Shown: positions 12,437 through 64,000 of the stretch, piece after piece | Position numbering within the stretch: the stretch's first letter is position 1 | How the letters are laid out: each line of letters starts with the position of its first letter | NCBI GenBank assembly: GCA_000004985.1 | Contig: GG738846.1 | DNA from: Naegleria gruberi | Taxonomy: Eukaryota | Direction: 5' to 3' (one strand) | DNA length: 64,000 nucleotides | The notes under the pieces: generated by a model | What the model was told of the DNA's origin: nothing | Database searches by the model: none | What the model saw: only the letters and a program-made list of their open reading frames with translations | Made by a program: the position numbers and the translations under genes

Positions 12437-14147
12437 ATGAAGAGATTTATTCTTGCACTCTTGTGCTTGGTTGCTATTGCTGCAATGGCAAGAGCTGAAT
12501 TGTTCCATGATGAAGATGCTCAACCTGCTCTCAACATTGATATTATCAAGAAGGTCAGAAGATCTGGTGCTCAATGGCAATCTGGTGTCAATAAGAAGTT
12601 TGTCGGCAAAACTGTTGGTGATGTTAAGAAAATGTTGGGTTTGAAGGTTTGTATTATTATTTTCTCTTGTTTTAATTATAATATTTTTATGTGTGATGCA
12701 ACGATAATTGTATATAAACTGTGACTGTCATTATTTTGGCACACATATGCTGATGATGAATATAACATTGTTCAAAATAATACATACTATGATAATTCAA
12801 CATGATGATGAAAATGATGTGATATTCTCTCACACTTTGGAATATACTTTGGAATATTATATGATGATGTTGATGATTTTATTGAATAATAGGGTATTAA
12901 ACCAACTATTAGATACTCTGATGATGAAAGAAAGTTGATTGAACAATACTATTTGGCTAATGGTGCTGCTTCTTCCTTGCCAGAAAGTTTCGATTCTAGA
13001 GAAAAGTGGCCAACTTGTATTCATCCAATTAGAAATCAAGAACAATGTGGTTCTTGTTGGGCTTGTAAGTTGTTTTAATTGTGTTATTTTGAATTTTAAC
13101 TGTGAAAATTAGTTTCTGTAAGTTTTGTTAATTAACAAATAAGAAACTTATTTATTCAGTCATCTGAAGTCTTGTCTGATAGATTCTGTATTGCTTCTGG
13201 TGGTAAGGTTAATGTTGTCTTGTCTCCTCAAGATTTGGTCAGTTGCAACTGGTATAACGCTGGGTATGTTTAATTTGTTGTTATATATTTATTCGAAATG
13301 TTGATGTTGTGATGGAATAGTTGTGATGGTGGTATTTTGTGGGCTGCTTGGATTTACTTGAAACATACTGGTATTGTTACTGATCAATGCCTTCCATATT
13401 CATCTGGAAATGGTGTCGCACCATCCTGTCCAAAGTAGTAAGTTTATTATAATCATCATATTCATCTTAAAATCTTTTCAAAGTTGCAATGGTACTAGTA
13501 CTCCAATTGACTCTGTCAAGTACAAGGCAAAGGACTGGTATGAAGTTGGTAGTATTGCTGGTTTCTTCATTAAGGTAAGTGCTATTTAATTACATCAGCA
13601 CACAACTAACAATATAATTCTAACAATTTTATTTATACTTTTCAATAATTTATTTAATAACAGGAAGAAAAGATCATGAATGAAATTGCCACTAATGGTC
13701 CTGTTCAATCTGGATTCAGTGTTTATCAGTAAGTAGAGAATGTTTAATTTTTTCCTCAGCTTTCATGTATATTCTGATTGAAATATTATAGAGATTTCAT
13801 GAGTTACAAGTCAGGTGTTTACACTCATCAAACTGGTTCTTTCCTTGGTGGTCACGCAATCAAGATTGTTGGTTGGGGTGTTGAAAATAATGTCAAGTAT
13901 TGGTTGGTTGCCAACTCTTGGGGTCCTGTAAGTTTTATTTTCTTTAAACATATTACTGGAATAATATATTAAATTATAATAATCAAATTAATCTACTACA
14001 GGATTGGGGTTTGAACGGTTTATTCAAAATCAAGAGAGGTGATAATGAGTGCGGAATTGAGGCTGATGTGTAAGTTTTTTAAAATTACTCAATAATTCTT
14101 ATAACATGAATTTATTGTATAGATATACTGGATTGGCTGATGTTTAA
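12437..14147 (+). CDS. Cathepsin B-like papain-family cysteine protease, 9 exons: 12437-12646, 12893-13064, 13170-13263, 13321-13434, 13484-13574, 13664-13728, 13792-13927, 14002-14069, 14123-14147
   Basis: The spliced product reads [18 protein letters not shown] (signal)...[33 protein letters not shown]...[13 protein letters not shown]...[50 protein letters not shown]... The catalytic Cys, His and Asn are present. Every junction has a GT[AT][AT]GT donor and an AG acceptor with frame continuity. The occluding-loop His-His pair is not evident. Confidence 0.85.
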
Positions 14148-23100: not shown

Positions 23101-26100
23101 TCCAAGCAATTCCAATAAATATTTGAATACGATTAACAATCAAATCAGTTAACATGTAAGCGTAGTGACCAACATTGGCAAATACTACAGCAAGTAAACT
23201 CTTTGCTCTAAATAGGAGAGGTAACTTTGGAGTTGATTCCTCTTTCTTATTTTCTTGAGAACCTTCTTGAGCAATTTCTGGAGCAACTTGTTGAATGACC
23301 TTACTCAATGCCTCATTGACAGAGTCATTTCTAGCATGTTTGGATATAATATTCAATTGTTGTTCCAATTTTGAAGATGGTGCACCTAAAACATCGCCAA
23401 GAGCAACAATTCTATCATGTGGAACAATCTTGGAAAGGATATTCTTCATTACCTTTTGAACCTCCTCTTTAGAAATATTACTTGGAAGGAATTCTTGGTT
23501 TGGATCAGATGGAAGATCCAACTGACCACGCTCGAAATGCACAGGTCTTCTCTTTGCTGAATTATCAACTACTAGAGTGGAGCTCTTGTAATTTTGTAAA
23601 TTCTCCAAAGTTGAAACGACTTCTCTCATCTTTTTCTGGAATTTATGCTCTGCCTTCTTCAAGCACTTTTTCATTAATTGTTCTTCCTTATTCAGGTTAG
23701 AGACAATCTTTTTTCTAATCTTGGCTGATTCCTTATTCTCCAAATCCAATAAATCACTCATTGCAAGTGCTAAAATAGCGCGTTCTCTTTCAATCTTTTC
23801 TGAATTCTTGGCATATGCATTGACTACCTTTTCATATTCTTCTTTGAGCATGTGCTTTCTATTGTAGAAACTTTGGAAATCAGAATCCTTGTTCACTTCA
23901 TGGAAACTTCTGAGTGCTTGTCGGTTGGCATCTCTTCTCTTTTCTGAAAAGAGTCCCTCTGCAAACCTTGATAAAATTTGAGCAGCTCTATAAGCTTGAT
24001 TTCTTCTGTACTTGGTGGCCCGTTCTTGACTTTCTCTGTATAGTAAATTAATGAAATGAATGTAATCCTCACTTTCGAATAATAAAATTTGCAAGTAATA
24101 GAGGCAGACTACAATAATTTCGGTGGTAAAACTTTCAAGGCCTCTTGCTTTAAGACCAAATAGGAGGCAAACATTCTTTACCCAACCACTTGTATCATTT
24201 TCGTTACCCCAATTAATAGGATCTCCCAACAATACAATTGGAATTTGATAAATTGCATCAATTACAAATGTTAAATAATAAAAAATACCAATTCCTCTCC
24301 AGAATGGAACTGTTCTCCAATACAATCTATTAAACAAGTTCAAATAGAATAAACAGAGAATCATTTGACCTAATTTGATAACATTTGAATCGATGGCTGC
24401 ATCAATAAACATGACAATCAAGACTATAAAACAAAAGAATCTATAAACTATCAACTTGATCCAATTCCACAATTTCTTTTGTTGATCTGGTGTTGTAAAG
24501 TCTTTGATTTTTTGAATTTTTCCTGTTTCAATGTTACGTTTGATTAAACTGCTTGTATCCAAGTGGACAATAAGTGCATTATCTAATTTCTGGGTTCTGG
24601 AAAGGAAGGATGAAACAATTTCACCTCTCTCACGTTTTGGAAGTTTTTCAGGTTGAGAAACTTCAATATGTTGCAATCTTGCATACATTCCTTTGAAGAA
24701 TACTCGTGCCTGCAAGGCCATAAAGAACATCATCAAGTAGAGAATGACTACAATGTACGTATTGCTAATTACTCCTCCAGATGTAGAGGTCAAATTGAGA
24801 ATAATATACTTGCTAAATATTGGAATATTCATCATGGCTTCGTAAAATTGCATTGAACGAACTATTTGCAATCTAAAGAAGAAGAGAATTAACATGTTAA
24901 TTTCAACAACCATTACTAAAAAGATCCATCCTCTTCTCAAAATTGTACTATTCTTTCCAGTAAAGAAACAAACACCAAAAACAATCAAATAAATGAATCC
25001 CCACAATGTTTGAATCAATGAAAGTGATCCTAACAATAGAGTAAAGAGAGAAATTTCAAATCCATAATCATCATAAAAGTGATTACAATAATATTTGAAA
25101 GATGAGAATAGCTTTCGTAAAAACTTGATAATCTTTCTCTTGTAGAAGGATTTAAAGTTTTCTTCTTCAGTTAAATCAGTTGGATGATCTTCATCAAAGT
25201 TCATCTTTTCAAATTCCTCTCTACTGATATAGATGGTATTTCTATTTCTCGCCTTGGATTTTCTCTTGTCAGCTGATGATGAAGGTCTCAACTTTTGAGC
25301 AAAACTAGCCATTGGATCATTCTTGCTTTTAACATTAACTTCTGCCTCTATGAATAAACATCCCTCATCATAGAGACCTCTACTCTTCATGGATCTCTCC
25401 CAACGATAGGTAACCTTTTGGAGGAGAGATGCAACAAATACCAATAAACTAGACCACAATACATTTCCAATGTGATGTCCTTCTGTTGATCTAGCATCTT
25501 CAAGTCCAATATAACCCAACCAAGTACAAACACCAGTGGAACGACCAAAATTCTCAACTTGATGTTGAACAATTGCTCCCAATGCACTATCACACAAACC
25601 ATTTGTAAAGAATGGATGTTGATAAATATACTTGATTGTCATGATAAATCCACTGTAGAGAGCTATCAAGAACCAAATCTTACTAGCAATAACAGGTGCA
25701 GGAGCAAATACAAGAACTAAAACCAAATAAATCAGACCAATAATATTTGGATTAAAGTTGGAAGCCAAGAAGAGGAAAATAATCAACAATTTAGGAGTAT
25801 GCATAACACAGAAACGTTTCATGACCAAGAAGCATTCCAATAGGAGTGAATCTATTTGCTCACTGAATATAATTTGTTTCTCAATTTTCACATGAGATGA
25901 TTCTTGAATAGTTTCAACAATTTCGTCCATCAATGATGGTGTATGTTCATGAATGTGTGTTGGACCAGTAGTAGTAGTAGGTGGTTGTTGCTGTGGTTGA
26001 TTTGGAATAGTTTGTTCTTGTTCTTTCTTTCTAATTTCTTCTTGTTCCTGCACTGTCTTGATTCTTTGTCTTCTTCTGCCAATAACAAATTGGAAATATT

Positions 26101-29100
26101 TCAATTGAACAATAGTCAATATGGCAATGATCGTGAAAGGAAGTAAACTGACATTCTTGTATTGGTACTTGTATAGACCAATGCTCTTTGGGGTAAGATA
26201 TCCGTAATATGAAGGAATTTCAATTGACTTGTCCAATTCATGTTCTCTGATAAGTTGCTTTGCTCTTTCAACTTCTGGCAAGATACTTTGAATGTAGGCG
26301 TACAGGGATGGGAATTGATAAGCATACTCTACAACAAATACCAAAGTAGAATAGAAAACAAAGACGTACCACAAGCCAACAAAGAATTGGAATAATCTGT
26401 AACCAGCTTTTGTGGAATTTGAATTGTGAACTGAGAGAACATTTAAACAGAAACATGCCATAACAATCATTAGGAATATGAATCCAATAAATGATGCTTC
26501 TTCTTGAAGGAAAATTACCAAAAAGACTGCAAAATAACTTGCCAAAGTTCCTAAAAAGTTTAACAATTCAGTTTCTAAAAAGATCTTATCCCAAACAAGA
26601 ATTAATTTTTCAAAGAATGTGTGCAAGTATGGATTCTTTTCTTTTGTAAACATATCCCATTGATCAAAACTAGTATTAACATTCACATTACCAACTGTCT
26701 TTACATTTGAAATATGATATTGAATACTGGTCAATGTTAGAATGAAAATGTGCCAAATAAGTCCTTTCCAAAACACTCCAAAACTACTTGTACTAATTTG
26801 ATTTTCAATTGTAATAAATGATGGATTAAAACCTATAATTTCATACGGTAAATCAACAACTTCAGGTGCGTACCACACATTGAAGAAGTACAAGGCAAGA
26901 ATAACAAATTGACAATATAGAACTAATAAAATCCATGTTTTTCTTGCAAAGGATGGGAAAATGAAATAGACAGCACAAAATATTACTTGGAAAATGTTAA
27001 ATTCACAGTGTGAAAAAGTAACTTACAATAAATAGCATGAAGTAAATCAGCATTTTCAGATGTCAAATCGGCAAAGTAGCAAACAATCAAACTCAAATAG
27101 AAACTGTTTCTCACAAAGAGAATGAGCAATACTTTCCAAATATAGTCAAAGAGTATAATCTTAATAGTTTGTAAAATCAACTTGATCTTAACCCAAACTC
27201 TTTTAGATGTATTTTGTGGTTCACACTCAACCTCTCCCAAATTATTGTCTGCTTCATCATTGATTTTATCCAATTCAGTCATGTCAACATTAGTTGGGTC
27301 TCTAATAGAATCTGAGAATACTGAATCATGAATAGATTGATCACCCATTGCAGGAGACATTATAACATCCAAATCACTATCTTCCTCATTGGTATAATAG
27401 ATGGATCTACGTTTAATATCCATAGAAGTTGATCTGTTACTATTAACAGAATCATTTGGAACAAGGGGAGCTGTATCATCCATTCCATAGTTATTATTGA
27501 TAGAACGTTTGTGGAACCAATATTTTGTAGATTTTAAAAATGCTAAACGTTATTCGAGTATTTGAATAAGAAAACATACCTTTTCGTTGAGAACCAGTCG
27601 AAGCAGCAGCAGTATTACTTGTTGATACTGTTTTTTTATGTCTCTTCAATAGCTTGGATACAGCACTAACTCTTACAGTCAACCCCATAAATAAGGACAA
27701 GATTAATTGACCAAAAATGACTGCAACAAGAACAATAGATCTACCACTATCACTAACATCTGTTAAAAAAGCTCCAACAGTTGTTCCTACAATGGCTCTA
27801 TAGAGAATTCCTTGAAGAGGATAAAACAATACTCCTCCACTTCCAGATGGATTAAATTCTTTTAGTAAAAGTAGTATGTGAAAAATTAAATAAATAATTA
27901 CAATTAAAACATACCATTTGCTGACATTTCTGTGGTTTGTGGAATGTATGATGCAAAATTTGGCATTTGGAAAACATATTGAGCACAAATATAAAGCAAA
28001 CTATAAATGAAACAGAAAGGTAACAGAATTACCATGACCTTATTGGTTTCAAATCTTGGTCCTGGTGATAAAACCATACCAAGATAAAGGAAAAGTAAAT
28101 AGGGAAGTGAACACAAACTTGGAACGGACAAAATGATACAAATCAATGCAATCATCAATGCATAGAGAATGAACTTTTGCAATTGTTCATATAAGAACAT
28201 TCTAAACTTGTAAGATGATTCATAAATGGAATGTACACCACCTGCAATTCCACCCATTGAAGTGTGTTCATCAATTTCTATTAATCTTCTCTCTTCAGAT
28301 TTATAGTACAAATCCTGAAGATATTCCTCAGAGTTTGTATCCAAATCTTCCTTATTAGAAATCATGGTTGGCAAAAGTGTTAAAAACTTTTTAACTTGTC
28401 TTTGTAGTTCTCTTTCTTGTAAAACTTTTGCAATATATTGACAAACAAAGTTACAAGCCAAGATGAATGTAATTAGAACAAATGTGATGAAAACATATCC
28501 AGTGTAGAACTTTTTGAAAAATTCAAATGATTTCAAATTACCATCAATATCAAAAAATCCAGCCATTTTACCATACGGATTTTGTAAAATCATTTTAGAA
28601 AAGTAACCAGTTGAGGAGATTGAATTGGTTTGGAAACGTGTTAAAAAGTAGAAAATGAGCAAGAGTATAGAATAAACTTGTGTAAATATAAATAATCTAA
28701 TGATGAATTGTAATAGTTATGAAAATTATTATAATTATATATTAAATTTAAAATAAACATACCCAATTGAAATAAAAGTCTTCAAGCTACCAAAACTGGC
28801 AAGTGTAATAATTAAAAAACTCAATAATAAATAAGGAATTCCTACAAAACTTGGATAAAAACTTGCAGTAATCATCAAAAAGAGTGCGAATATAATCAAT
28901 TTCAATTCATGAATATTGACATGTTTCTTTTCAGTCTTTTCCTTTGGAGGCATTGATCCAACATGAGTTACTGAAGTTTTCAATTCTTGTACAGAACATG
29001 TCAAGAGCTTTGGATGTTTAGTAAAAACACCAGGTAAATCCCACATGTACATGGTAGCTCCCTTAACTTTAGGAATTGATTCAATTTGTTGTTTCTTCAA

Positions 29101-30630: not shown

Positions 30631-33600
30631 TCAATAATTAGCAGCTGCTGCCATAGAATATGTTGACTGACCATTAGCAAGTGGAATATTCATCATGGAA
30701 CGAGCATATCTAGTTTCTGCCACCTTAATCTTTTGTGATTTTTCATCCTCAACTCTGTATCTCTTCCGACAATACACTGCAATTACAATAAGAATTATCA
30801 CAATAATGCAACAACACACCAACAAGATTGCTCCAACAATTGTAATGGCAACTACTCCTAAAAGAGTCCAATCGAATGAATAGGTGGTTGTTGCTTTCAT
30901 TTGTCCAATCAATATAACATTACCCAACTTGTTACAGGTACAACTAATTGATGTTCCTGTGTAGGCTTTGACACTACAACCAAACACAACTTTCAAAGCC
31001 TGATCATAGTAGGCACAATAAGTTTTCGAATAATTGAATGAATCTGAAATGTTTCTCAATGGGAATGTATAAACAATGGTAGAGTAGTCTACCATATTAT
31101 TATTAATGTTATCTTCTCCAAAATCTAAAGAAATTGAGAATGGTGAAATAACATATGGTGTAATGATAAATCCACTTTCGGTAATGGTCATTCTATCAGC
31201 AATTTTAAAAATGTCCTTTGTTGTCAAAACTGAATAAACAATATTGCTTTTAGAAAAAGCCTTTGGGAAAACATCGCCAATAAATGAAACAGATGAATCT
31301 TCTCCCAAGTCAATTTTGATTCCCTTGTATTGTAATCTTGGTACCTTTGCTGAAACTAATCTAAATGTTGTGGAAATGAATTGGGATGGATCAGTTCCAA
31401 TAATTTTGTTTCTCATTAGGAATCTAGAAGACTTTTTTGCTAGGGCCACAGCAGATATCATATTGTCTTCTTCACCTCTGAATGATCTCCACTCAAAATA
31501 TTTGAACATTGATTCTAAAGAGTAGTGGATCAGTAATTGAACATTTTTTGATGGAATGATTTCTTGAGTTTCAGTCATTCTGGTGAGTGTTTTATCGAGA
31601 AGGGAAATAGTGTTGGATACAACACTTGTTGCCACAGAGGTATAATCTCTCAACATTGAATCAATGGCAACAAGAATCAAATGTAAATGGTAAATGTTTG
31701 GATCTGGGTGCATAATTAGAGCAGTTTTCAAGTCTGACATTAAACTGACCAAATTATCTTGAAGTTCTTTGAAATCGGCAATTTTCATTGAACAATCTGA
31801 TCCATAATATCCTTCAATACATGTACAAACACCTTCACTCACAACACCGTTCATACAAGTAGTTCTATTTGGGTTATTCATATTGGCTGAAATTGACCTC
31901 ACAATAGCACTGGCAGTGTAGAGATTTAAATTCCAATTTCCTTCAGAATTTGAGTAAAGATCAGTCCAAAATGAAACTTTTTCCAAAATATTCTTTTCAA
32001 AAGACATTGGAAGGATGGTCACTTTAGAAGTAATTCCAATTTTGGCCATAGTTTTAGTGTTAACAACATCCAAAAAGAGTGAAAGTTCATTCCCTGCGTA
32101 TGGAGGAGGAAGAACTGCTGAATAAGTCTCTCCCAGGACTGAAAGAGGAATTTTGGTAAATGTCCTTTCTTCCAAGAAACCATAAACTATATCCAGTGTT
32201 TGATTTTTTAAACATGATGAGTCACAAACATAACTAAACTTTGTTTCCATAAAGATACCAGTAGATTGTTGAATTTGGCAAGAACACAGAGTTGGATTCT
32301 TTGCAACTTTGAAAGAATAAGAGGTTGTTGCAAGCCTTCCACTAGAATCTGCAATTGTTACTGCTAACATGTTGTCAGTACCATCTGTTAAAGAATATGC
32401 AGGAAAAATGACAAAATCACTCGTAGAAGGAGTTGAAGATTGATCACTTAACTCGACACCATTCAAAGACCACTTCCTCGATGAGATTGTATCTAACATT
32501 GACTGAGAATAAATTTGGTAGACAAATGCTTCATCTGTTGTTATGGTCGTTCTTTTAGGAACCGTATCTATGACACTGATAACTGGTTTGTCTGAAAGTA
32601 CCATTTCAATAGAAGATGTTGCTGTTCGTGAACCTTTCACAACCATTAAAGTGAGAATGAATGAAGAACTGGTTAAAACAATGTCCTTAGTGAGATCGAA
32701 TGAGGTGGATTGTGTTTTACCATAACTATTCAATGCTGTTTGTAAGGTTGTAGAACATGCTGGATCGCATGACCATGTCCATGTACTACTTTGGGTATTT
32801 AACATATCGGGATCATAATACTCCACTTCAATGTGGGCTGTTGTTGCTGATACCAAATATTGAATTACTCTTAACTGAAGTTCAGGAGAGTAGGTTGTTA
32901 TCTCTAAATCATCATAAAAGTAAAATGATCCATCAAATGCAGGTGTTCCAACTCTAAAGACATACTTTTGATTACCATAAGAGTACAGTCTATTGATTTG
33001 TAAATTAGAATATGTATCTGTTGTAAAATCTACAAAAGGTCCATAAATTTGTTTCCATGAAATTGTAAAATTGTATTCTTGCTTTGCCACGCAGGAATAA
33101 TCCAAGTTGGTAATTTGTTTTCTGAAAATTGTTGGAACGTCTGTGGTGGCGAGAGTTCTATTATTCTTTCCAACAATTTCTATAGCAGGTGGAGGAAAAC
33201 CCAAATTCACAACAGTAATAGTCTTTGGAATACTCAAAACTCCAGTAATAGCATCTTTAACCGTGAGGGTAAGATCGAAGCTTCCATACACTGTAACTTC
33301 TGTGGTTGTAAGGTTGAGAAATGGTGTTGAGTATTGTTTCACATAACTTGTTTTAGTTTTGTGTTGTATAGTCCAAATATAAATAAAAGGATTTCCATAT
33401 GAAGGTGTGCTCATTTCTCCATTAATAACTATAGGTTGGCATTTGTGAAATTCAGTTAATGTATAAGAAAGCATAGCAATAGGTCTTTGTTGTTCAAATT
33501 CACAAAAAGTTCCATTGTAACCATTTTTGCATTGGCATTTATCAGGTTGAAGACAAGATCCCCTCCCATTACAGACATAAGATGTGTTACTATAGAGAGT

Positions 33601-34089
33601 TGAATTGCAATAGTAATATTTACAAGTATATCCAGAATATCCTTCATTACACAAACAATTATTTGGAGAGTTGCACTTTCCAAAACCACTGCACACTGTT
33701 GGGTTATTATAACTCTTACCATAACAAGTTAGAGTACTATTGCAATAGGTTCCAACCCATCCATAAAAACAAGAACAACTTTCATTTTCCACACAATTTC
33801 CATTCCAACATGGAAACGTTAAACAATTAGTCGATGATTGAATTGTTTGATTGTTACTTGTCGGTATTGTACTGTTCACCACACTGGTTTCATTGCTACT
33901 TATTGAATCGTTGGTGTTTTGCACCAATCTCTCCGAATGAAGTATTTTGTTAATTCGTGATGATATATCATTCGTCTGCAGAGTTTTATCTGTCGATGAT
34001 GTAAATGTTGTCTCTAAATTTAGGAGTAAGACTAAGCAAGCGATGATAATAAATAGAAAAGGCTTAATTGTTAGTTGTGATGATTTCAT
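30631..34089 (-). CDS. Type I transmembrane surface protein. It has a signal peptide, N-terminal tenascin-type EGF repeats, a roughly 900-aa Ser/Thr-rich beta-sandwich ectodomain, one TM helix and a short cytoplasmic tail.
   Basis: ATG at 34089 (MKSSQLTIKPFLFIIIACLVLLLNL...). The track start at 34125 is a TTG. EGF signatures include CWNGNCVENESCSCFYGWVGTYC and CNGRGSCLQPDKCQCKNGYNGTFC. The TM helix is LLGVVAITIVGAILLVCCCIIVIILIVIAVY, followed by the tail CRKRYR...AAAANY. Confidence 0.75.
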   Translation of the reverse strand: MKSSQLTIKPFLFIIIACLVLLLNLETTFTSSTDKTLQTNDISSRINKILHSERLVQNTNDSISSNETSVVNSTIPTSNNQTIQSSTNCLTFPCWNGNCVENESCSCFYGWVGTYCNSTLTCYGKSYNNPTVCSGFGKCNSPNNCLCNEGYSGYTCKYYYCNSTLYSNTSYVCNGRGSCLQPDKCQCKNGYNGTFCEFEQQRPIAMLSYTLTEFHKCQPIVINGEMSTPSYGNPFIYIWTIQHKTKTSYVKQYSTPFLNLTTTEVTVYGSFDLTLTVKDAITGVLSIPKTITVVNLGFPPPAIEIVGKNNRTLATTDVPTIFRKQITNLDYSCVAKQEYNFTISWKQIYGPFVDFTTDTYSNLQINRLYSYGNQKYVFRVGTPAFDGSFYFYDDLEITTYSPELQLRVIQYLVSATTAHIEVEYYDPDMLNTQSSTWTWSCDPACSTTLQTALNSYGKTQSTSFDLTKDIVLTSSSFILTLMVVKGSRTATSSIEMVLSDKPVISVIDTVPKRTTITTDEAFVYQIYSQSMLDTISSRKWSLNGVELSDQSSTPSTSDFVIFPAYSLTDGTDNMLAVTIADSSGRLATTSYSFKVAKNPTLCSCQIQQSTGIFMETKFSYVCDSSCLKNQTLDIVYGFLEERTFTKIPLSVLGETYSAVLPPPYAGNELSLFLDVVNTKTMAKIGITSKVTILPMSFEKNILEKVSFWTDLYSNSEGNWNLNLYTASAIVRSISANMNNPNRTTCMNGVVSEGVCTCIEGYYGSDCSMKIADFKELQDNLVSLMSDLKTALIMHPDPNIYHLHLILVAIDSMLRDYTSVATSVVSNTISLLDKTLTRMTETQEIIPSKNVQLLIHYSLESMFKYFEWRSFRGEEDNMISAVALAKKSSRFLMRNKIIGTDPSQFISTTFRLVSAKVPRLQYKGIKIDLGEDSSVSFIGDVFPKAFSKSNIVYSVLTTKDIFKIADRMTITESGFIITPYVISPFSISLDFGEDNINNNMVDYSTIVYTFPLRNISDSFNYSKTYCAYYDQALKVVFGCSVKAYTGTSISCTCNKLGNVILIGQMKATTTYSFDWTLLGVVAITIVGAILLVCCCIIVIILIVIAVYCRKRYRVEDEKSQKIKVAETRYARSMMNIPLANGQSTYSMAAAANY

Positions 34090-34266
34090 TTTTTTAACTG
34101 TTAAACTGCTTTTATAAGCCGCCAATTCCTTGTGCTTTTCTAAGTGGGCTCTGGAACTTTAATTTACAGTTTCTTTTTTTGGACTTGTGAAAGTCCATTA
34201 CAACTTTTACCATTAAGGCAGTAAGGATATATGCACCATTTGAATATTTTCATAATTATTTGTGAA

Positions 34267-34340
34267 GCCGTCATAGCTCAGTTGGATAGAGCACAGGACT
34301 TCTAATCCTGGGGTCGTGGGTTCGAGCCCCATTGTCGGTA
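34267..34340 (+). tRNA. tRNA-Arg (anticodon UCU, reads AGA)
   Basis: GCCGTCATAGCTCAGTTGGATAGAGCACAGGACTTCTAATCCTGGGGTCGTGGGTTCGAGCCCCATTGTCGGTA folds as a cloverleaf. It has a 7-bp acceptor stem with one GU and one mismatch, a GCTC/GAGC D-stem and a CAGGA/TCCTG anticodon stem. The loop CTTCTAA has U33 and A37, and there is a GTTCGAGC T-loop. A TTTT terminator follows. Confidence 0.9.
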
Positions 34341-34419: not shown

Positions 34420-37400
34420 ATGGTTCAAAACTTGCCATGCCTAACTAAGAGGCAAATACCATCGTCATCTTTTATTCTCACCATGAATTCTCTTGTAATA
34501 CTCCTCTTTTTATTAATTGACATATCACATCAGCAAGAAATCCTTAATTGCCACGGCTTTCTCTCCAATGATACAATGGTCTGCAGTGGACACGGAACGT
34601 GTATAGCCAATAACCATTGCTCATGTAGGCCTGGTTATGGTGGTGAACAGTGTCAAGAAATTTCATGTTTTAACAATTATCCAAGGATGGTTCAATGTAG
34701 TAATCATGGAGAGTGTATTGCCCTCGATACATGTACATGTTACGATTTATATACAGGTCCAAATTGTGAACAATGTAAACAACCATTCCATGAAGGAGAA
34801 CATTGTACTCCCATTCAATGTTTTGGTGTTGAATATTCAGTGAAGAGTGTTTGTTCTGGTAATGGTGATTGCATTGCATCAAATAATTGTTCTTGTCGTG
34901 ATGGTTTTGTTGGTGAGAGATGTGAACAATTCACTTGTTTAAATTCAACTCTGAATAATACAGAATCAAACAATTCAGTGTTGATTCCATGTTCTGGACA
35001 CGGAGAATGTGTCAAAGCCAATAATACATGCAATTGTTATTCGGATGTTTTGTATGGTTTTTGGGCTGGTGCAAATTGTGATTCTTGTAAATCAGGTTAT
35101 GGGGGAACAGAATGTAAGGAACAAGTTTGTTCCTCATTAACAACTTGTAACGGTAGAGGTGAATGTACACAACATAATGAACCAAAGAATAATGTGAAGT
35201 ACTTCTTTGCTGGTTATCAATTAATATCAAGGAGTGCAATTCGTGCTCAAAATTTCAGAAATTTAACATTAGAGGGAAGTATTGCAACTGAAGGAGGTTT
35301 CTCAGTTCAAGTTTTGAGATCAGCATATGGTCAAGTGAATGTAAGAAATGACATTTCAAAAAATATGGTCAACTCTGCTATTTCTCTCTATCAAGAATTT
35401 TCATCTCTTGATTGTGATCAAACCATGCAACAATCCATTCCAAGTGGAGGTTTAAATCTAAAAGCTGGCACTTACTGTTTCCCACAAGGGTTAAATGGAG
35501 GAGGAAAGATTTCTGTTTCTGGAAGTGGAAGAATTGTCTTGATTTTAAAAACCAATTTGAATTATGGCTTCACTGTTGAATATTTAGATGGTGCCACAGT
35601 TGATAATCTATTCTGGGTAGTTGCTATGGGTAGTTCCATTAGTGGTAAATTCTCTGGTAATTTACTGACAGTTGGTCAAATTAATGTTAATAATGCATTC
35701 ATTTCTGGATCAATTATCAATGTAGGATCTTCTGAAATGAACCTCAATGGAGCTTCATTCGGTCCAATCTACTCCCCTCCTGTAGTAGATCCTTGTAAAT
35801 GTTTCGGTAATTATGCTCCTCCATACTGTGAATCATGTAGTGCTGGTTTCTTTGGAGACAATTGTACTCTCTCATGCTCACCAGAAAGGAATTGTAATGG
35901 AAGAGGTCAATGTTCACAAACAGGTTCTTGCTTATGTGGACCAAGATTTTCTGGTGCCTATTGTGAAGTGTGTGCAACAAAATGGATTGGAAAGAATTGT
36001 GACTACTTGATTGGAGACAGAGCCATGTTGAAAATAAGCAAATTGACTATTCAATATGCAAATCCATCCAAATCTACCCAAATAGATTGTTCTTCGATTC
36101 TCCTTGACGAAACTGTAAAAGAATTAGGATCCTCTCCTCAATGTTATTGGGATGACAAGTCAACCAATAGTTTCGTAATTGATTTAGGATTTGGGAATAC
36201 CATATATGCTGGATCCATTCTCAAATTCAAACTTGAAAATGGAAACTCTGCTCTTGTCACTGTCTATACAGATCCAAACTCAACCAACAATCCCCCAACT
36301 CCAATTCTAAAAGTTTCTTCTAAAATCTCAACATGTGCCCGATTAGAATTGGATACCTCATCTTCATATTCTCCAGATAAGAAATCTATTAGTTACAAAT
36401 TTGAGGTGACATCAACTCCAAATGAAAATTCAATGGTAGTTTTGAGAAGGGAATTATCACTCTTTGAAAATCAAGCATTTTTCAATATAGCTGCTTCCAA
36501 ATTAGCTGTTGGATCCTACAGCATCAAACTAACTGTTTCTAGTCCAGTAACTGGAAGTGCTTCAACTCAAGTAACATTCGAAATCATCCCAGTTCCTCCT
36601 CCAATCATTGATATTCCTGGAGGTTTATCTCAATCATTCGTTTATGGATCTGTAGTTGTAATTAATCCTCAAATTAGCGTTGCAGGATGCTCTAATAATG
36701 ATGGTTCCATAATTTACTCTCCTGCCAAATATCAAGATTTTTCCTATAATTGGGAACAAGTTTCAGGAAATGCAACCAAATTTTCACAAGAATCCTATAA
36801 TAGAATTCTTGTCATTTCAAGTCTACAAAATGAAGGAAGTTTCAAATTAAGTGTCTCGTCCTCAACTGGTTATTCTGATCGAGTGACAGTTGAATTGAAA
36901 TTGAAAGAGAGTGAATTGGTTTTGAAAATAAGAAATGGTAATTTCCTCTATGGAAAAGTGAACCAAGCAATGACTGTTGATTTTTCTCAATCCTATGATC
37001 CAACTAAAACTTTGGAGAAGGAGGAATTCTCAATTGTTTGTATTCCTTTGGGAGTTCTTGCTGTTTGTCCAATTTCTGAAATCTATGCCAATGTGAATCA
37101 AGAAAAAATGTTCACAATCGCAGAGAATTCATTGGTTGCAGGTTTGTATCAATTTACCATTTCCTATTCGAAAGGACGTCGTTCCAAGACTGAAACAGTT
37201 GTTGTGGAATTGGCTGAATACGTCTTTTTGAATGTTTTCATCAAGATGGCCACCAATGATTTCCTTCCAACATCTGTTCCTTTGGGAATGAATGTTTCAT
37301 TAGAAGCAGTTTCTCCACCAGATATTAGAAATGAAGTCACCTACATTTGGAGTTCCAGGACGAGTGGATTTACTCTGAATGATCAAACAACAATATCAGG

Positions 37401-37824
37401 AATAACCGGACCATTTTTAACCATTCGTGGTGAAGTACTCCAACCAGATACTTTTTATACCATCAGATTAGACGCGCAGTGGAATAAGTTGAATGGTTTT
37501 TCAGAATATTATCTTGCAATTAATACTCCACCTAAACCAGGTTATTTTACAGTCAATCCATTACAAAGTAAATCTGGTATTGACACTGTGACGCTTTCAT
37601 GTAGTGGATGGTCGGATGATAATACACCACTCTCCTATCAATTCTTTTTCAATGATGCAAAAACTTCAAGTTGGCAAGCATTAACTGGAAAAGTTTCCAC
37701 CAATCAGGTCAATGTAATGTTGCCTCCTGGTTATGGATCTTCTTCTCAATTAACAATTAAGGCAAGAGTTTATGACTCTACAGGTGCATTTAGTGAAATG
37801 CAACAAGTTGTAATGTCCAGTTGA
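34420..37824 (+). CDS. Secreted multi-EGF protein with an embedded ice-binding-like (DUF3494) right-handed beta-helix domain (aa ~255-450, nt ~35185-35780) and a C-terminal GWSD...PLSYQF module. It is a paralogue of the C-terminal part of the 14755 gene. No TM helix or GPI tail is seen, so there may be an undetected 3' exon.
   Basis: The signal peptide is MNSLVILLFLLIDIS (ATG 34420, alternative ATG 34483). About 7 EGF repeats (CSCRPGYGGEQC and similar) are present. The IBP-like block is LKAGTYCFPQGLNGGGKISVSGSGRIVLILKTNLNYGFTVEYLDGATVDNLFWVVAMGSSISGKFSGNLLTVGQINVNNAFISGSIINVGSS. It mirrors the fungal/bacterial IBP consensus L.PG.YKW...DTWIFQI...GGAQAKNI.W.VAGAV......F.G.ILA.T...KTG...NGR.L. 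The C-terminal block is CSGWSDDNTPLSYQFFFNDAKTSSWQALTGK, against CGNGWSDPQSPLKFQFLYLDAASNNWVSLTEK in the 14755 gene. Confidence 0.75.
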   Translation: MVQNLPCLTKRQIPSSSFILTMNSLVILLFLLIDISHQQEILNCHGFLSNDTMVCSGHGTCIANNHCSCRPGYGGEQCQEISCFNNYPRMVQCSNHGECIALDTCTCYDLYTGPNCEQCKQPFHEGEHCTPIQCFGVEYSVKSVCSGNGDCIASNNCSCRDGFVGERCEQFTCLNSTLNNTESNNSVLIPCSGHGECVKANNTCNCYSDVLYGFWAGANCDSCKSGYGGTECKEQVCSSLTTCNGRGECTQHNEPKNNVKYFFAGYQLISRSAIRAQNFRNLTLEGSIATEGGFSVQVLRSAYGQVNVRNDISKNMVNSAISLYQEFSSLDCDQTMQQSIPSGGLNLKAGTYCFPQGLNGGGKISVSGSGRIVLILKTNLNYGFTVEYLDGATVDNLFWVVAMGSSISGKFSGNLLTVGQINVNNAFISGSIINVGSSEMNLNGASFGPIYSPPVVDPCKCFGNYAPPYCESCSAGFFGDNCTLSCSPERNCNGRGQCSQTGSCLCGPRFSGAYCEVCATKWIGKNCDYLIGDRAMLKISKLTIQYANPSKSTQIDCSSILLDETVKELGSSPQCYWDDKSTNSFVIDLGFGNTIYAGSILKFKLENGNSALVTVYTDPNSTNNPPTPILKVSSKISTCARLELDTSSSYSPDKKSISYKFEVTSTPNENSMVVLRRELSLFENQAFFNIAASKLAVGSYSIKLTVSSPVTGSASTQVTFEIIPVPPPIIDIPGGLSQSFVYGSVVVINPQISVAGCSNNDGSIIYSPAKYQDFSYNWEQVSGNATKFSQESYNRILVISSLQNEGSFKLSVSSSTGYSDRVTVELKLKESELVLKIRNGNFLYGKVNQAMTVDFSQSYDPTKTLEKEEFSIVCIPLGVLAVCPISEIYANVNQEKMFTIAENSLVAGLYQFTISYSKGRRSKTETVVVELAEYVFLNVFIKMATNDFLPTSVPLGMNVSLEAVSPPDIRNEVTYIWSSRTSGFTLNDQTTISGITGPFLTIRGEVLQPDTFYTIRLDAQWNKLNGFSEYYLAINTPPKPGYFTVNPLQSKSGIDTVTLSCSGWSDDNTPLSYQFFFNDAKTSSWQALTGKVSTNQVNVMLPPGYGSSSQLTIKARVYDSTGAFSEMQQVVMSS

Positions 37825-50911: not shown

Positions 50912-52491
50912 TTATTGTTGATGTGAGGGTTTATATTTCATGCCACAAATGAATCCAATCCTAAATCCCTCAACGATCAAATTCAAATCATGAGTTGAAC
51001 GAACGGGCAGGCCATTAAAAATAGCAGCCATATCACTCTCAGCTTTGCAAATTTCTTGTAAGAGTACCAGAAACTCTGGTAAACTATTTGCACTGGTTAA
51101 TAGGTGACAGTTTTGGAGAATACTTCTTCCATCACCCAAGTGGAAATGTGGTTGATTTACAGTGGTGATATTATTATTGGTGATTGAGTTTGCAAATGTT
51201 ACATGTTGGGTTGGCCTCTGAGATGTTGAGGATAAGTATGCTCCTGTTTCATTATTTGATGAAGTATGATCGTTGGGAATTTGATTAAAATGTAAAAGGA
51301 TATTCTTAATGTAATTGACTTGGTCTGAACTAGTATCATTGATTAGGGAATTGAAGGTTTGTGAGCTAGATGATGATGGTTGATTTGGATTTGTTGTTGG
51401 ATTGAAACTGTACATTTGATTAATTTGACTTGGTTGGGAGTTTTTGAAAGGGGATGTTGCTTTTGAACCACTTGAATTTATCACTTCCTGCTTGACATCC
51501 TCATTTGGACCACCACTATCACTTGTTTCACTCTCCGAATTTGATCCTAGTTCAACATTTGCAGAGCTCATACCTTCACCAATTGGAATGATTCCCTTCT
51601 TAACTTGTTGTCTATATTTCTGGAGATGAGATTTGATATGTGTGGTGGTCAAATCAGGGAGATTCATCAATTCCAATATTTCCTTTGGTCTTGCCTCATT
51701 GAGTCCTAGCTGAGACACTGCTTTAACAAATAGATCATGCAATTCATTGGTCCAAACTAACCTCTTCTTATCGGCATGCTTTCGTTTAAAATCAGTTTCC
51801 ATGTGATAAAAGAGAGAACTCTCCATTGTGGCAGAACTTGATCCAACATTTCCCCTGGAAGACTCTGCTTGTTGTTTCCTCTTCTTATTACTGGAGAATC
51901 CTTGTTGTGGTGGATTATTCATGTTGTGAAATTGAAAGGAAGTTGTTGGAGGAGTGCTATTACTACTGCTTGCACATGTATTATTCACACTCACATTTCC
52001 ACTCGATTGAAACAAGAACATGTTGTTACTAATATTGTTGGCATTATTCAAATCCGTCATGTTAGATTGGTGTTGATAATTACTTCTACTACTATTGTTC
52101 CCGTTACTTCTTGCATTGTTAGATGGTGGATGGTGTTGTTCACCAAAGGTGAATTGTTGCTGTTGTTGATGATAGGGTTGTTGTTGTTGTTGTTGTTGGT
52201 GTTGAAAAGGGGAGGTGTGTGCAGGTGTTCTTTGAGGCATATCTTTTGTGAGTTAAATTGTGCGCCGAGTTAAATTAGATCAGGAAGAAGTTTAGTAATA
52301 TAAAATGCATGCAATAAAATGCCAAGTTGGTATTAATGTTGCAACACAGTAGGAAAGTTGACTTACCAAATTGAGAGAAGGAATTGTCTATAGTAGATTG
52401 AATGTGGTTTGGTTGAGGGGAAATGTAAGAGATGTTATTATTATTGTGATAATCAACCAGGAAGTTAATTAATTGGTTTGTGGTAAGGTCC

Positions 52492-54013: not shown

Positions 54014-55205
54014 ATGTCCAGATTATTGCTTGGTGTGTTGCTTGTTGCCATCATCTTGACTTGTGTTGCTTGTCAAGAGCATGTTGAAAAAGAGGGATGG
54101 GATGGTGTTGGCTTTTTCCTAGGTGAGAAATCTGCATCTCAACTCCAAATGGTATGTCAATATTATTATTTCACATCACTAATTATTGTATTATATATAT
54201 TGAACTCTCTAGACAAAAAGAAGAAGTGAAATTCTTTCAATTTTGAACAAACCACCACAACCTTCCAACAAGATTACATCCACTAATCAATCCATTAGAG
54301 ATGTCATTGCTAATGCTCAACTTCCAACATCATCTACTATTAAATTCCCAAATAATAGATTCCCTTCATGCACAAAACAACATTGTAAAAAATTCTGTCG
54401 TCATGGTTTCCAAACTGATGCTCGTGGTTGTCCAATGTGTGCATGTAAACAACCTTGTCCAACTTATAGAGCTTGTAAAAGAAAATGTGAGTTTGGCTAT
54501 GTTCTCGATGCAAATGGTTGTAATAGTAAATGCCAATGCAAAGAAGCTCCAGCTCTTGTCAAACCTAAACCAATATGCCCACAATATTTGTGCAGACGTC
54601 ATTGTCAATTTGGATTCAAAATTAATGAAAAGGGTTGCAGAACTTGTTCCTGTAATGAAAAACCAATCAAACCTAAACCATTAAGTATTTGTCCACTTTA
54701 TAGATGTAGACGTCATTGTCAATTTGGATTCAAAATTAATGAAAAGGGTTGCAGAACTTGTTCCTGTAATGAAAAACCAATCAAACCATCAAGTATTTGC
54801 CCACTTTATGGATGTAGACGTTACTGTCCATATGGATTCAAGATTAATGAAAAGGGATGTACTACTTGTTCCTGTAATGAAACGCCAAATACCACAAAGC
54901 CATTCCCAATCAAACCAATATGCCCACAATATTTGTGTAGACGTCATTGTCAATTTGGATTCAAGATTAATGAAAAGGGTTGCAGAACTTGTTCCTGTAA
55001 TGAAAAGCCAAATACCACAAAGCCTTTCCCAATCAAACCAAACCCAATCAAGCCAGATTTTATTAGAAGATTCATCCAAAATCAAACCAAGCCACTCAAG
55101 TTAAACAATGGCCAAAAAATTGAGACATTGTTTACCAAACCAGCTGTGTTGAGAGCTGAATCTGCTCCAGTCAGAACTTTTCCAAGAAGAGGTGGTAGAA
55201 GATAA
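54014..55205 (+). CDS. Secreted tandem antistasin-like domain protein: a signal peptide plus about 7 six-Cys antistasin-type modules, putatively a serine-protease inhibitor. Two exons: 54014-54151 and 54213-55205.
   Basis: Exon 1 is MSRLLLGVLLVAIILTCVACQ...SQLQM with a GTATGT donor. A 61-nt intron ends at tctctag. The modules fit C-x4-C-x3-C-x-FG[FY]-x5-GC-x2-C-x-C, for example CPQYLCRRHCQFGFKINEKGCRTCSC repeated five times. Two N-terminal variants are CTKQHCKKFCRHGFQTDARGCPMCAC and CPTYRACKRKCEFGYVLDANGCNSKCQC. Confidence 0.75.
54570..55060 (+). repeat. Intragenic tandem duplications of roughly 120-nt antistasin-module units with near-identical nucleotide sequence
   Basis: atgcccacaatatttgtg[ct]agacgtcattgtcaatttggattcaa[ag]attaatgaaaagggttgcagaacttgttcctgtaatgaaaa recurs at about 54575, 54925 and, with variants, 54690 and 54805. 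Confidence 0.8.
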
Positions 55206-55261: not shown

Positions 55262-56443
55262 TTATTGCAATTGCTCAATGAGTCCTTGATTATATCCACA
55301 ATCACCTGTTGTACCTCCTTGTTTACCAGTTGAAACAATTTCAAATGTGAGTTTGATTGGCGAACCGTGTGCCAATAAGATGTTGTTTGAATAGTACTTG
55401 GCCCTTCTTCCGTCAGTCCATTCGACAGTAATGTCAAGAATTCCATCCCTAATAAAACCAGAGTATTTCTTCTCAATTTGAACTCCACTGTTCTTATTGG
55501 ATCCTCTGACATTGTCACCAGTTGGGTTGTCATCTACATCTATTAATACTTCCCACCCAGGTACTTCTGAATTGGTACCTTTTCCTTGGAATTTGGTCCA
55601 AACAGTTTTACCATAAAATCTGAATTTTCTTGTGATGACTTGTTGGACTGGTGGCATGACAAGAGGTTGTGATGGCATTGGCATTGGGTTATATTGGAAT
55701 TCACCGACTGAGTAAGGTGGAGGTGGTGGTAAAATAGAGACAGGAACTACATTTGGTGGAGGTTGATTCATCATGGTTTGCAATTTTTGTTGATATTGTA
55801 AATTAATTTCCTTTTCTTTTGCTAATTCCGAATTGAGCGAATCAATTTGTCTCAACATTACTTCAATATTTTGCTTTGATTGTTGATTTTCAGCAACCAA
55901 TTGCTTATTCATAGAGACTAATCCCTCTGAATCAATTTGGCTTCTCTTCATTAATTGTTTAATTTCCTCCCTCTCGAAGAGACACTGTTCAGCCTTGTGT
56001 TTTTCCATTTGCAAACCATTGCCCTCAAATTTGCATCCATAAACACAATTCTCACATTTTAATCTTCTTCCCTTACATTCCTTTTCAACGTGATCCCAAT
56101 AGTTACATCTCTTAATTGTCTTCTCGCAACAACCATTGTCATTATTAGGACAAGTAACTTCCAAATTATTGACCACTCTATTTACAAAATTATTAAATAA
56201 GAACGCTTCGAATCCAACCGGAAGTTCCTTAGCATCGAGCCCACATTTTGGACAACAACTACAACCAGCTTCCTTCATCCATTTATCCAAACAATCAAAA
56301 CAAAACATGGATCCACATTTTCTGCACTCTCTATTGTTATTTAAAAAATCAGAGCAAATTTGACATTGAAGCATTACCCCGATATTCTCAGCGGTAGAAG
56401 AGTTGTACAAGACCTTGTCCTTAGGTACAGCACGTGTAGCCAT
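55262..56443 (-). CDS. TRAF-like E3 ligase-type protein: N-terminal RING finger, TRAF-type zinc fingers, a coiled coil and a C-terminal beta-rich domain
   Basis: The start is MATRAV.... The RING is CQICSDFLNNNRECRKCGSMFCFDCLDKWMKEAGCSCCPKCG. The TRAF-type Zn fingers are CPNNDNGCCEKTIKRCNYWDHVEKECKGRRLKCENCVYGCKFEGNGLQMEKHKAEQC. A Q/E-rich coiled coil follows. Coordinates are from the ORF track. Confidence 0.7.
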   Translation of the reverse strand: MATRAVPKDKVLYNSSTAENIGVMLQCQICSDFLNNNRECRKCGSMFCFDCLDKWMKEAGCSCCPKCGLDAKELPVGFEAFLFNNFVNRVVNNLEVTCPNNDNGCCEKTIKRCNYWDHVEKECKGRRLKCENCVYGCKFEGNGLQMEKHKAEQCLFEREEIKQLMKRSQIDSEGLVSMNKQLVAENQQSKQNIEVMLRQIDSLNSELAKEKEINLQYQQKLQTMMNQPPPNVVPVSILPPPPPYSVGEFQYNPMPMPSQPLVMPPVQQVITRKFRFYGKTVWTKFQGKGTNSEVPGWEVLIDVDDNPTGDNVRGSNKNSGVQIEKKYSGFIRDGILDITVEWTDGRRAKYYSNNILLAHGSPIKLTFEIVSTGKQGGTTGDCGYNQGLIEQLQ

Positions 56444-62427: not shown

Positions 62428-62889
62428 ATGGAAGAACAATTGCCGAAAAGCTATGACGTATTTTCAAAAGAATACCACGTGGAGGATTATAATTTATATT
62501 TAATTTATTTGGATATTGTTTATAACAAAAAGTTACCGAAACATGATTTTAATGAAGTGATTGGTATCAAACAGTGTAATATTCAAATTATGATGGATAT
62601 TTGTTCATTAAATTACATGGTATGCAGAATGACTCTGCCCATCACTACAAACATAGATGAAAATATGAAAATTACAGATGTTGATTTTTCACAAATTCAC
62701 TCTTTGGATGAAATCAAGTGCGAAATGAAGAGCTTTTCATTTGTTCCAATACCTATTCATATGAAATTATCTTTTCATCAATATCATTCAATTGTGAAAG
62801 AAATCAAGAAGGAAAATTCAGAAATTGATTCTATTGTCATTACATTTGTAGATGGTGATGGTACTTTATTGTATTATCAAATGAATTAA
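62428..62889 (+). CDS. Small hypothetical protein (153 aa), unassigned
   Basis: ATG-initiated ORF MEEQLPKSYDVFSKEYHVEDYNLYLIYLDIVYNKK.... Its TAA stop (62887-62889) overlaps the stop of the convergent gene. Confidence 0.45.
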   Translation: MEEQLPKSYDVFSKEYHVEDYNLYLIYLDIVYNKKLPKHDFNEVIGIKQCNIQIMMDICSLNYMVCRMTLPITTNIDENMKITDVDFSQIHSLDEIKCEMKSFSFVPIPIHMKLSFHQYHSIVKEIKKENSEIDSIVITFVDGDGTLLYYQMN

Positions 62890-64000
62890 TTGACATCTCC
62901 ATGGTAAATGACATTCAAGCATACAGAAATAGAGCCACTCGGGTCTGTAGCAAAACCAAACTTGTTAAGAAAGTGCTGTTCAAACCCATTAGGAATTGCA
63001 GTATATGATAAATCTCTCAACTCTGTTGAACCTCCAACAAATGAGCTTCTGAGATTATTTCGAATTGAACCGGTTGGTTTCCACGTATTTACAGTATAAT
63101 TGTGATAGCCAGGAGTTGATGGAAGAGCAATGAAGCCATATCCCTCAACTCGATATCTATCCCAAAAGTCTTTTGAGGTGACCTGGAAGAATAATTTAGG
63201 CATTGGTGTTATATTACTACATAGGCAATTAAAATTGAAAGGGAAGGAAAAGTTGGCTTCATAATAACTCTCGTATTCTTTGGTGATTTCTACAGCAGTT
63301 CCCATCTGTGTGGAGGTAATTAGTTTCTGTGACATTGGATCTTCAAAAACAAAATTAGAAGGCATATCAAGATAGTATCGAATATAGTACTTTTCAGAGT
63401 CGAAATCTCGCCCTGAAAGAATATTTCCTGAAATTGAAACACGTATTCTCTTATCTTTAGGTGGGTGATTAAATTCCATACCTACTAAATTTCTTTTCAT
63501 GAGAAGTGATCTTTCTTGAAGCTGTTTAAGAATTTTCTTTCTCATCTCATCTACCTTTGTATCCTTTTTGTAATCATTGTAGAGTGAAATGGTATATTCA
63601 TATACAGCTCCATCGTCAGTTCTGAAAATGTATCTATTTTCCTTTGGTTTTAACAAGAGATCAATATCACCAATTTCATTTTGATATCGTTTCAAAAAAT
63701 CGCTGGTTGGTTCCTCTTTTTGATTCTCTAATGGTTTCACAGAAAATCCTGGTTTCATTAAGAAACTCCCATCTGGTAATGATTGAATTATACATATTGG
63801 ATATTCCTTTCCTTTCCATGCACCATTCTGCATATCTCCCACACTTGTCATTATGTACATTGTTTGGGATTTTGAGCTTAGTGGTTTTTTTGCATTTTTA
63901 AATATTGGGTATGGAGTTTCAGAAGAGCAAGCTATTGACTGATGGACATTATCAGTTTCAAAGTCATCAATTTCTACATAAGTGAATAGTTTGTGTTGAA
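62886..64000 (-). CDS. MKS1: MKS1-like B9-domain ciliary transition-zone protein. The C-terminal part and stop are in the window; the N-terminus runs off the window end.
   Basis: The B9 domain is PKLFFQVTSKDFWDRYRVEGYGFIALPSTPGYHNYTVNTWKPTGSIRNNLRSSFVGGSTELRDLSYTAIPNGF. Compare B9D2 [61 protein letters not shown]. The reading frame stays open upstream of 63860 to position 64000 (...IDDFETDNVHQSIACSSETPYPIFKNAKKPLSSKSQTMYIM...). This N-terminal extension favours MKS1 over B9D1/B9D2. Confidence 0.75.
   Translation of the reverse strand, partial: QHKLFTYVEIDDFETDNVHQSIACSSETPYPIFKNAKKPLSSKSQTMYIMTSVGDMQNGAWKGKEYPICIIQSLPDGSFLMKPGFSVKPLENQKEEPTSDFLKRYQNEIGDIDLLLKPKENRYIFRTDDGAVYEYTISLYNDYKKDTKVDEMRKKILKQLQERSLLMKRNLVGMEFNHPPKDKRIRVSISGNILSGRDFDSEKYYIRYYLDMPSNFVFEDPMSQKLITSTQMGTAVEITKEYESYYEANFSFPFNFNCLCSNITPMPKLFFQVTSKDFWDRYRVEGYGFIALPSTPGYHNYTVNTWKPTGSIRNNLRSSFVGGSTELRDLSYTAIPNGFEQHFLNKFGFATDPSGSISVCLNVIYHGDVN

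Follow-up and report, generated by a model that had tools for sequence, protein, structure and literature searches.

A six-module antistasin-like protein of Naegleria gruberi with a tandem module array and a putative role in serine-protease inhibition

We analysed 64,000 nucleotides of contig GG738846.1 from Naegleria gruberi (assembly GCA_000004985.1), a stretch referred to below as the window, which has 34% GC, poly-Q tracts, and short GTATGT introns. A plus-strand gene in the window, running from an ATG at 54014 to the last letter of its stop codon at 55205, is not a single reading frame and is built from two exons (Table 1). The gene model requires a 61-nt intron that was absent from the initial annotation of this locus. 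The spliced product is 376 aa long and is letter for letter RefSeq XP_002682687.1 of N. gruberi (sequence in Table S3, PMC12482156); no mismatch was found when the full 376 aa were compared. An AT-rich sequence with such poly-Q tracts and introns would also suit a dictyostelid, an origin that we rejected because the window contains a ciliary B9-domain gene and that the exact match to N. gruberi rules out; the Piezo and EGF/REJ genes and the GC content agree with N. gruberi as well. The gene call is correct, and the gene is already annotated in RefSeq and published.

The protein has a layout of four parts: a signal peptide, a conserved Cys-free region of ~75 aa, six modules of 26-28 aa with six Cys each, and a conserved basic tail. 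Its N-terminus, MSRLLLGVLLVAIILTCVAC followed by QE, is signal-peptide-like. SignalP 6 is given as "YES" for XP_002682687.1 (Table S3, PMC12482156), which bears out the signal peptide that had been proposed ahead of the modules. Of the 38 Cys in the protein, the signal peptide accounts for two and the modules for the other 36 (6 x 6). The linkers between modules are free of Cys, short, and rich in Pro and Lys (for example, KPIKPKPL and NTTKPFPIKP). The Cys-free flanks (54014..54368 and 54999..55202, plus strand) carry dibasic motifs, KRR and RRGGRR, that are candidate processing sites.

Table 1. Features of the antistasin-like gene, other genes of the window, and bacterial modules from the GTDB scan (bacterial coordinates are those of the respective locus)
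Feature	Coordinates	Strand	Description
Exon 1	54014..54151	+	46 codons; start, signal-peptide-like N-terminus, and beginning of the conserved N-terminal region; GFFLGEKSASQLQM
Intron	54152..54212	+	61 nt, GTATGT...TAG, phase 0; excision reproduces the RefSeq protein exactly
Exon 2 including stop codon	54213..55205	+	remaining N-terminal region, six antistasin modules, conserved basic C-terminal tail
Module 1	54369..54446	+	aa 99-124, CTKQHCKKFCRHGFQTDARGCPMCAC; P1-equivalent Lys; best Pfam stretch, profile positions 1-26 of 26
Module 2	54456..54539	+	aa 128-155, CPTYRACKRKCEFGYVLDANGCNSKCQC; 28-aa variant; P1-equivalent Lys
Module 3	54576..54653	+	aa 168-193, CPQYLCRRHCQFGFKINEKGCRTCSC; P1-equivalent Arg; AF2 pLDDT 84.7
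Module 4	54690..54767	+	aa 206-231, CPLYRCRRHCQFGFKINEKGCRTCSC; chimeric: 5' end module 5-like ("CPLY" type), remainder as in module 3
Module 5	54798..54875	+	aa 242-267, CPLYGCRRYCPYGFKINEKGCTTCSC; "CPLYGC" subtype, common to other Naegleria species
Module 6	54921..54998	+	aa 283-308; protein identical to module 3; 2 synonymous differences in 78 nt
Tandem array, four module-plus-linker units (modules 3-6)	54558..55025	+	114, 108, 123, 123 nt; TRF period 108/123
C-terminal tail, Cys-free	54999..55202	+	PDFIRRF..NQTKP and TKPAVLR..AP.R.FPRRGGRR conserved in orthologues
Myb-like gene	50912..52240	-	actual neighbour
RING/TRAF-type zinc-finger gene	55262..56443	-	downstream neighbour, convergent with the antistasin gene
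Cathepsin B-like gene, multi-exon	~12.4-14.0 kb (~12440..14000)	+	signal peptide; Peptidase_C1 and Propeptide_C1 fragment matches; CGSCW active-site motif at 13046, His-loop exon about 13778-13930
Large EGF/REJ-domain surface protein (one of three)	14755..20049	+	
Large EGF/REJ-domain surface protein (one of three)	30631..34125	-	
Large EGF/REJ-domain surface protein (one of three)	34420..37824	+	
Piezo channel homologue	20153..26893	-	
tRNA-Arg(TCT)	34267..34340	+	
Ciliary B9-domain protein	62886..63860	-	
Bacterial example L010 (GTDB)	5982..7187	-	Pfam-positive modules
Bacterial example L010 (GTDB)	7285..7758	-	Pfam-positive modules
Bacterial example L004 (GTDB)	4643-4792		Pfam-positive modules
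Bacterial example L058 (GTDB)			Pfam-positive modules
Bacterial example L077 (GTDB)			Pfam-positive modules

Downstream, 56 nt separate the stop codons of the antistasin gene and the RING/TRAF-type gene (55205 / 55262), a gap that implies very short or overlapping 3' UTRs. The initial annotation had placed the gene next to a cathepsin-containing region. The cathepsin B-like gene in fact lies at a distance of about 40 kb, with over a dozen genes in between, and encodes a papain-family cysteine protease; to our knowledge, such proteases are not targets of antistasin-type serine-protease inhibitors. Given both its distance and its protease class, the cathepsin is not a plausible partner, and we discarded a functional link between the two genes.

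To define the repeated unit, we compared the modules with one another and with related ones. All six satisfy the pattern C-x4-C-x3-C-x9/10-C-x2/3-C-x-C with a conserved G[FY] and GC, and in an alignment of 23 modules the invariant columns are C, C, C, G, G, C, C, and C. The window has six occurrences of this Cys pattern; 100 shuffles gave none. The modules are all basic, with net charges between +3 and +5. The tighter formula proposed initially, C-x4-C-x3-C-x-FGF-x5-GC-x2-C-x-C, describes modules 3, 4, and 6; it does not hold for module 5 (YGF), module 1 (HGF), or module 2 (C-x5-C, FGY, and GC-x3-C).

A search against Pfam assigned the protein to Antistasin (PF02822) with a score of 149.7 bits (E 2.7e-44; gathering cut-off 21.2), in six matched stretches, and so upheld the family that had been suggested from the letters of the sequence. 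No second Pfam family matched at E<=10, including TIL (PF01826) and granulin (PF00396), the two alternatives named at the outset. We then searched a profile built from 23 Naegleria and Willaertia modules against all PDB sequences at E<=10. The matches were antistasin 1skz (2.3e-8), guamerin 3bg4, hirustasin 1hia/1bx7, gigastasin 5ubm, and bdellastasin 1c9p; no chain outside the antistasin family, and hence neither TIL nor granulin, was matched at this threshold. All six module Cys aligned column for column with these matches, in agreement with the proposed register to antistasin and hirustasin. An AF2 model of module 3 gave just six Foldseek matches in the PDB, all to the same antistasin-type inhibitors (rmsd 1.1-2.5 A, TMq 0.55-0.73). 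A two-module segment modelled from a single sequence was poor (pLDDT 64) and its Foldseek outcome meaningless, and we set it aside. Pfam and the PDB profile thus agree in placing the modules in the antistasin family, to which the predicted fold of module 3 tentatively points as well. By alignment, each module corresponds to Cys5-Cys10 of the leech ten-Cys antistasin domain, that is, to the C-terminal subdomain that bears the reactive-site loop. The leech-type N-terminal four-Cys subdomain (Cys1-Cys4) is missing from the protein.

In the PDB profile alignments, the residue that follows Cys2 of the module lies opposite R34 of antistasin, R30 of hirustasin, and M36 of guamerin, the P1 residues of those inhibitors. 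At this P1-equivalent position modules 1 to 6 have K, K, R, R, R, and R. Over the 36 modules of the orthologue set, the same position is R in 28, K in three, L in four, and G in one.

The protein belongs to a group that has been described. XP_002682687.1 is listed in Table S3 of an mSphere 2025 paper as a 376-aa protein with six PF02822/IPR004094 domains and a signal peptide (PMC12482156). The same paper reports 59 antistasin-like domain proteins, found in every Naegleria species that has been sequenced as well as in Willaertia magna, 86% of them with a signal peptide, and notes that they have fewer Cys than the characterised leech proteins (PMC12482156). According to this source, opisthokonts make up 99% of the domain's eukaryotic entries in InterPro, non-eukaryotes account for 2.2% of its InterPro entries, and antistasin modules are too short for phylogeny (PMC12482156). 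The initial annotation had pointed to a classically metazoan family in a protist. The host is indeed Naegleria gruberi; the unusual non-animal distribution was already reported in 2025 with this accession listed (PMC12482156), so that the observation is not new. The module is also widespread in Myxococcota (below).

Orthologues with the same N- and C-terminal flanks have four, seven, and eight modules in N. clarki, at least seven in PL0398, and six in PL0403. Four orthologues (from N. clarki, PL0398, and PL0403) keep the N-terminal Cys-free motif GFF[LI]GE[KR]S..L...[KR]R..[ED]IL. At the C-terminus, alignment of the proteins from these species gave the motifs PDFIR.F..NQTKP and TKPAVLR..AP.[RK].F.RR.G[RK]R. 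Across the set, conserved flanks enclose modules 1 and 2 followed by a variable array, and a module orthologous by position to module 2 is present in N. clarki, PL0398, and PL0403. The orthogroup column of Table S3 (PMC12482156) is apparently misaligned in some rows: PL0398_g14102 and PL0403_g14575 have the flanks and module order of OG0011043, yet are labelled OG0001630 and OG0001192, respectively.

The variable array of N. gruberi comprises modules 3-6. At the DNA level, modules 3 and 6 are 97.4% identical over 78 nt, and modules 3 and 4 and modules 4 and 6 are each 91% identical over this length. Identity falls to 81-86% between module 5 and modules 3, 4, or 6, and to about 55% between module 1 and modules 3-6; module 2 is of a different length. 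Rather than the seven modules, five of them near-identical, of the initial annotation, there are six: three near-identical modules (3, 4, and 6; 91-97%), one similar module (5; 81-86%), and two that have diverged (1 and 2). An exact run of 80 nt is common to units 3 and 4 (54594-54673 = 54708-54787), the 5' end of unit 3 is common with unit 6, and the downstream linker is common to units 5 and 6. Such mosaic sharing among units points to unequal exchange and/or gene conversion. Modules 3-6 are a tandem array that has been reshaped via duplication and/or gene conversion.

How recently this happened is a separate matter. A module of PL0398 is one residue away from N. gruberi modules 3 and 6, and module 5 is nearest to "CPLYGC" modules in other species. 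On these protein comparisons, the module subtypes predate these Naegleria species. Because subtypes are common to several species, near-identity at the protein level reflects constraint as well as history, and only the DNA-level identity argues for recent homogenisation. Duplication or homogenisation within the gene, as proposed initially, therefore stands on the 80-nt run, the mosaic, and the orthologues with 4-8 modules. To call the process "very recent" or "ongoing unequal crossing-over" is more than the data allow, since module subtypes are common to several species and gene conversion would account for the pattern of the array equally well. The array might also be an error of assembly, in which collapse or expansion of repeats set the number of modules and the "recent duplications" were not biological. 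Tandem repeats are prone to such errors, and the exact run in units 3 and 4 is of the kind that could provoke one; however, the whole array is only about 470 nt long, its units can be told apart by length, linkers, and 5' ends, the reading frame is intact, and independent assemblies from four related species have comparable arrays of 4-8 modules. We consider an artefact very improbable.

To see how widely the module is distributed, we searched beyond Naegleria. An exhaustive search with phmmer through 1.84 billion representative proteins returned 450 matches at E<=1e-3, with identities of at most 48% and without any match to the C-terminal tail. There was no self-match, a word-indexed protein search likewise missed the protein, and exact look-ups of three neighbouring ORFs returned nothing; N. 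gruberi is apparently absent from these collections; a lack of close homologues in large collections is therefore uninformative about Naegleria itself. The best named matches were giant multi-module proteins of echinoderm, hemichordate, and mollusc origin, and a homologue search with two-module units returned only three molluscan proteins. No viral relatives of the full protein were found, nor were any phage matches found by tblastn. Our literature search for antistasin in Dictyostelium yielded nothing useful.

We also scanned a back-translated module pattern over one genome per GTDB species, a scan in which about nine chance matches are expected. At least 120 matches were obtained, the great majority of them from Myxococcota and Bradymonadia, with the isolate Nannocystis exedens DSM 71 among their sources. 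Among the GTDB matches listed, 91 of 120 loci contain a complete, open six-Cys module. All nine bacterial translations that we tested exceeded the Pfam Antistasin cut-off (30-106 bits), as did a tenth, the probably host-derived L065. Our literature search found no work linking antistasin to Myxococcota. Given the abundance of the module in Myxococcota, the view that the family is largely restricted to animals reflects database sampling.

Several of these loci have further features. Kazal-like motifs (PVCG.DG.TY..C) lie just upstream of an antistasin module in L006, L026, L037, L058, L072, L116, and L117. Locus L055 (1739..4018, minus strand) codes for a bacterial protein of 759 aa, rich in Cys, in which a Kazal-like motif accompanies three antistasin modules; its gene adjoins a bacterial hybrid histidine kinase. 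In L065 (2074-2124, plus strand), on a contig of a Metamycoplasmataceae MAG, Pfam identifies a Kunitz/BPTI domain fused to an antistasin module; the likely source of this locus is the DNA of an animal host that was wrongly binned with a bacterial MAG.

What might the N. gruberi protein do? We hypothesize that it is a multi-headed inhibitor of the canonical type, directed at serine proteases with cleavage after Arg or Lys, a role inferred from sequence and one to which we give even chances. The protein would be secreted and would act in a substrate-like (canonical, Laskowski-type) manner, with each of its six modules offering the residue after Cys2 (K, K, R, R, R, R) as P1. The P1 loop would be braced by disulfides pairing Cys 1-4, 2-5, and 3-6 within the module. 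This predicted register derives from the Cys-for-Cys alignment to solved structures together with the published pattern of leech-type ten-Cys domains, whose disulfides are 1-3, 2-4, 5-8, 6-9, and 7-10 (PMC6265900). Candidate targets are proteases that the amoeba itself secretes, or else proteases of its prey or of microbial competitors. The modules are basic overall (+3 to +5), so that Arg or Lys at P1 could partly be a matter of composition and not of selection for specificity, which weakens the P1 argument for an inhibitor. Counting against an inhibitor, too, is the absence of the N-terminal four-Cys part, which all leech inhibitors with known biochemistry possess. A literature search by accession (XP_002682687.1) found no biochemical data on the protein, and one for Naegleria serine proteases or secretome found nothing useful.

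The same basic character suits a different function, that of a cationic, Cys-stabilised protein that binds or kills bacteria in feeding or defence, its secreted modules attaching to anionic surfaces of the bacteria, with protease inhibition absent or secondary. Naegleria is a bacterivore, the positive charge extends to every module, and a signal peptide is present. Against this, nothing specific supports binding to membranes or surfaces, the matches in sequence and fold are solely to protease inhibitors, and the least variable non-Cys position in the module is the P1-equivalent Arg (28/36), which better fits an inhibitor. We therefore hold an antimicrobial or bacteria-binding protein to be unlikely. 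It is also improbable, in our judgement, that the protein is a structural component of the extracellular matrix or cyst wall in which disulfide-rich modules and Pro/Lys-rich linkers form a cross-linked scaffold. The linkers have a suitable composition, other Naegleria antistasin-domain proteins have long Pro-rich repeats (Table S3, PMC12482156), and an antistasin-like protein of the leech cocoon membrane or wall is cited in PMC7851590. However, the protein offers no free (odd) Cys for intermolecular cross-links, and we found no literature on the proteomics of the Naegleria cyst wall.

A secreted inhibitor is thus the function that we propose. The account as a whole, namely the XP_002682687.1 gene, its membership in the known Naegleria/Willaertia antistasin-like group, and the proposed inhibitory mechanism, seems to us slightly on the probable side. 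A bolder reading, which we regard as doubtful, joins it to the bacterial modules. On this reading, the six-Cys module would be old and mobile and not an animal invention, abundant in predatory Myxococcota and Bradymonadia and often fused there to Kazal domains. Heteroloboseans would possess an independent lineage of basic modules with Arg at P1, its tandem arrays growing and becoming homogenised within species, and the N. gruberi protein would be a working multi-headed inhibitor in protease warfare between the amoeba and bacteria, be they prey, competitor, or predator. A recent transfer between Myxococcota and Naegleria, in either direction, is unsupported, as acidic modules with Asp/Glu at the P1-equivalent position face basic modules with Arg/Lys.

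Alone, the gene is of little weight, since it is in RefSeq and appears in the 2025 paper among the secreted antistasin-like proteins, with six domains. To that published account we add the anatomy of the repeats at the DNA level, the mapping of the P1 position, and the commonness of the module in Myxococcota, which bears on the origin of the antistasin family. The consistent Arg/Lys at the P1-equivalent position offers a concrete and cheap hypothesis on inhibition. Furthermore, the orthologues of the N. gruberi clade, with their 4-8 modules, are a compact case of change in module number and homogenisation in a small putative inhibitor gene.

Three sets of known modules can be compared with those of N. 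gruberi. The modules of Myxococcota and Bradymonadia have the same six-Cys spacing and are often in tandem and often beside Kazal-like motifs; they differ in being acidic (mean net charge -3.2) and, among the matches listed, in that 57 of 105 modules have an acidic residue (Asp or Glu) at the position equivalent to P1; those of N. gruberi are basic and have Arg or Lys there. The leech antistasin-type inhibitors (MEROPS family I15) share the six-Cys C-terminal subdomain in register and, in the case of antistasin and hirustasin, a basic P1. They have ten Cys per domain, whereas the Naegleria modules are without the four-Cys N-terminal subdomain and are 30-42% identical in sequence; the leech inhibitors have been characterised biochemically, while the Naegleria protein is known from its sequence. 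Finally, Hydra antistasin (Holstein et al. 1992) is described in PMC7851590 as consisting of six internal repeats, each 25-26 aa long and with its Cys arranged as in the C-terminal portion of the leech domain, and by this published description the metazoan protein has the same six-repeat, six-Cys architecture as that of N. gruberi.
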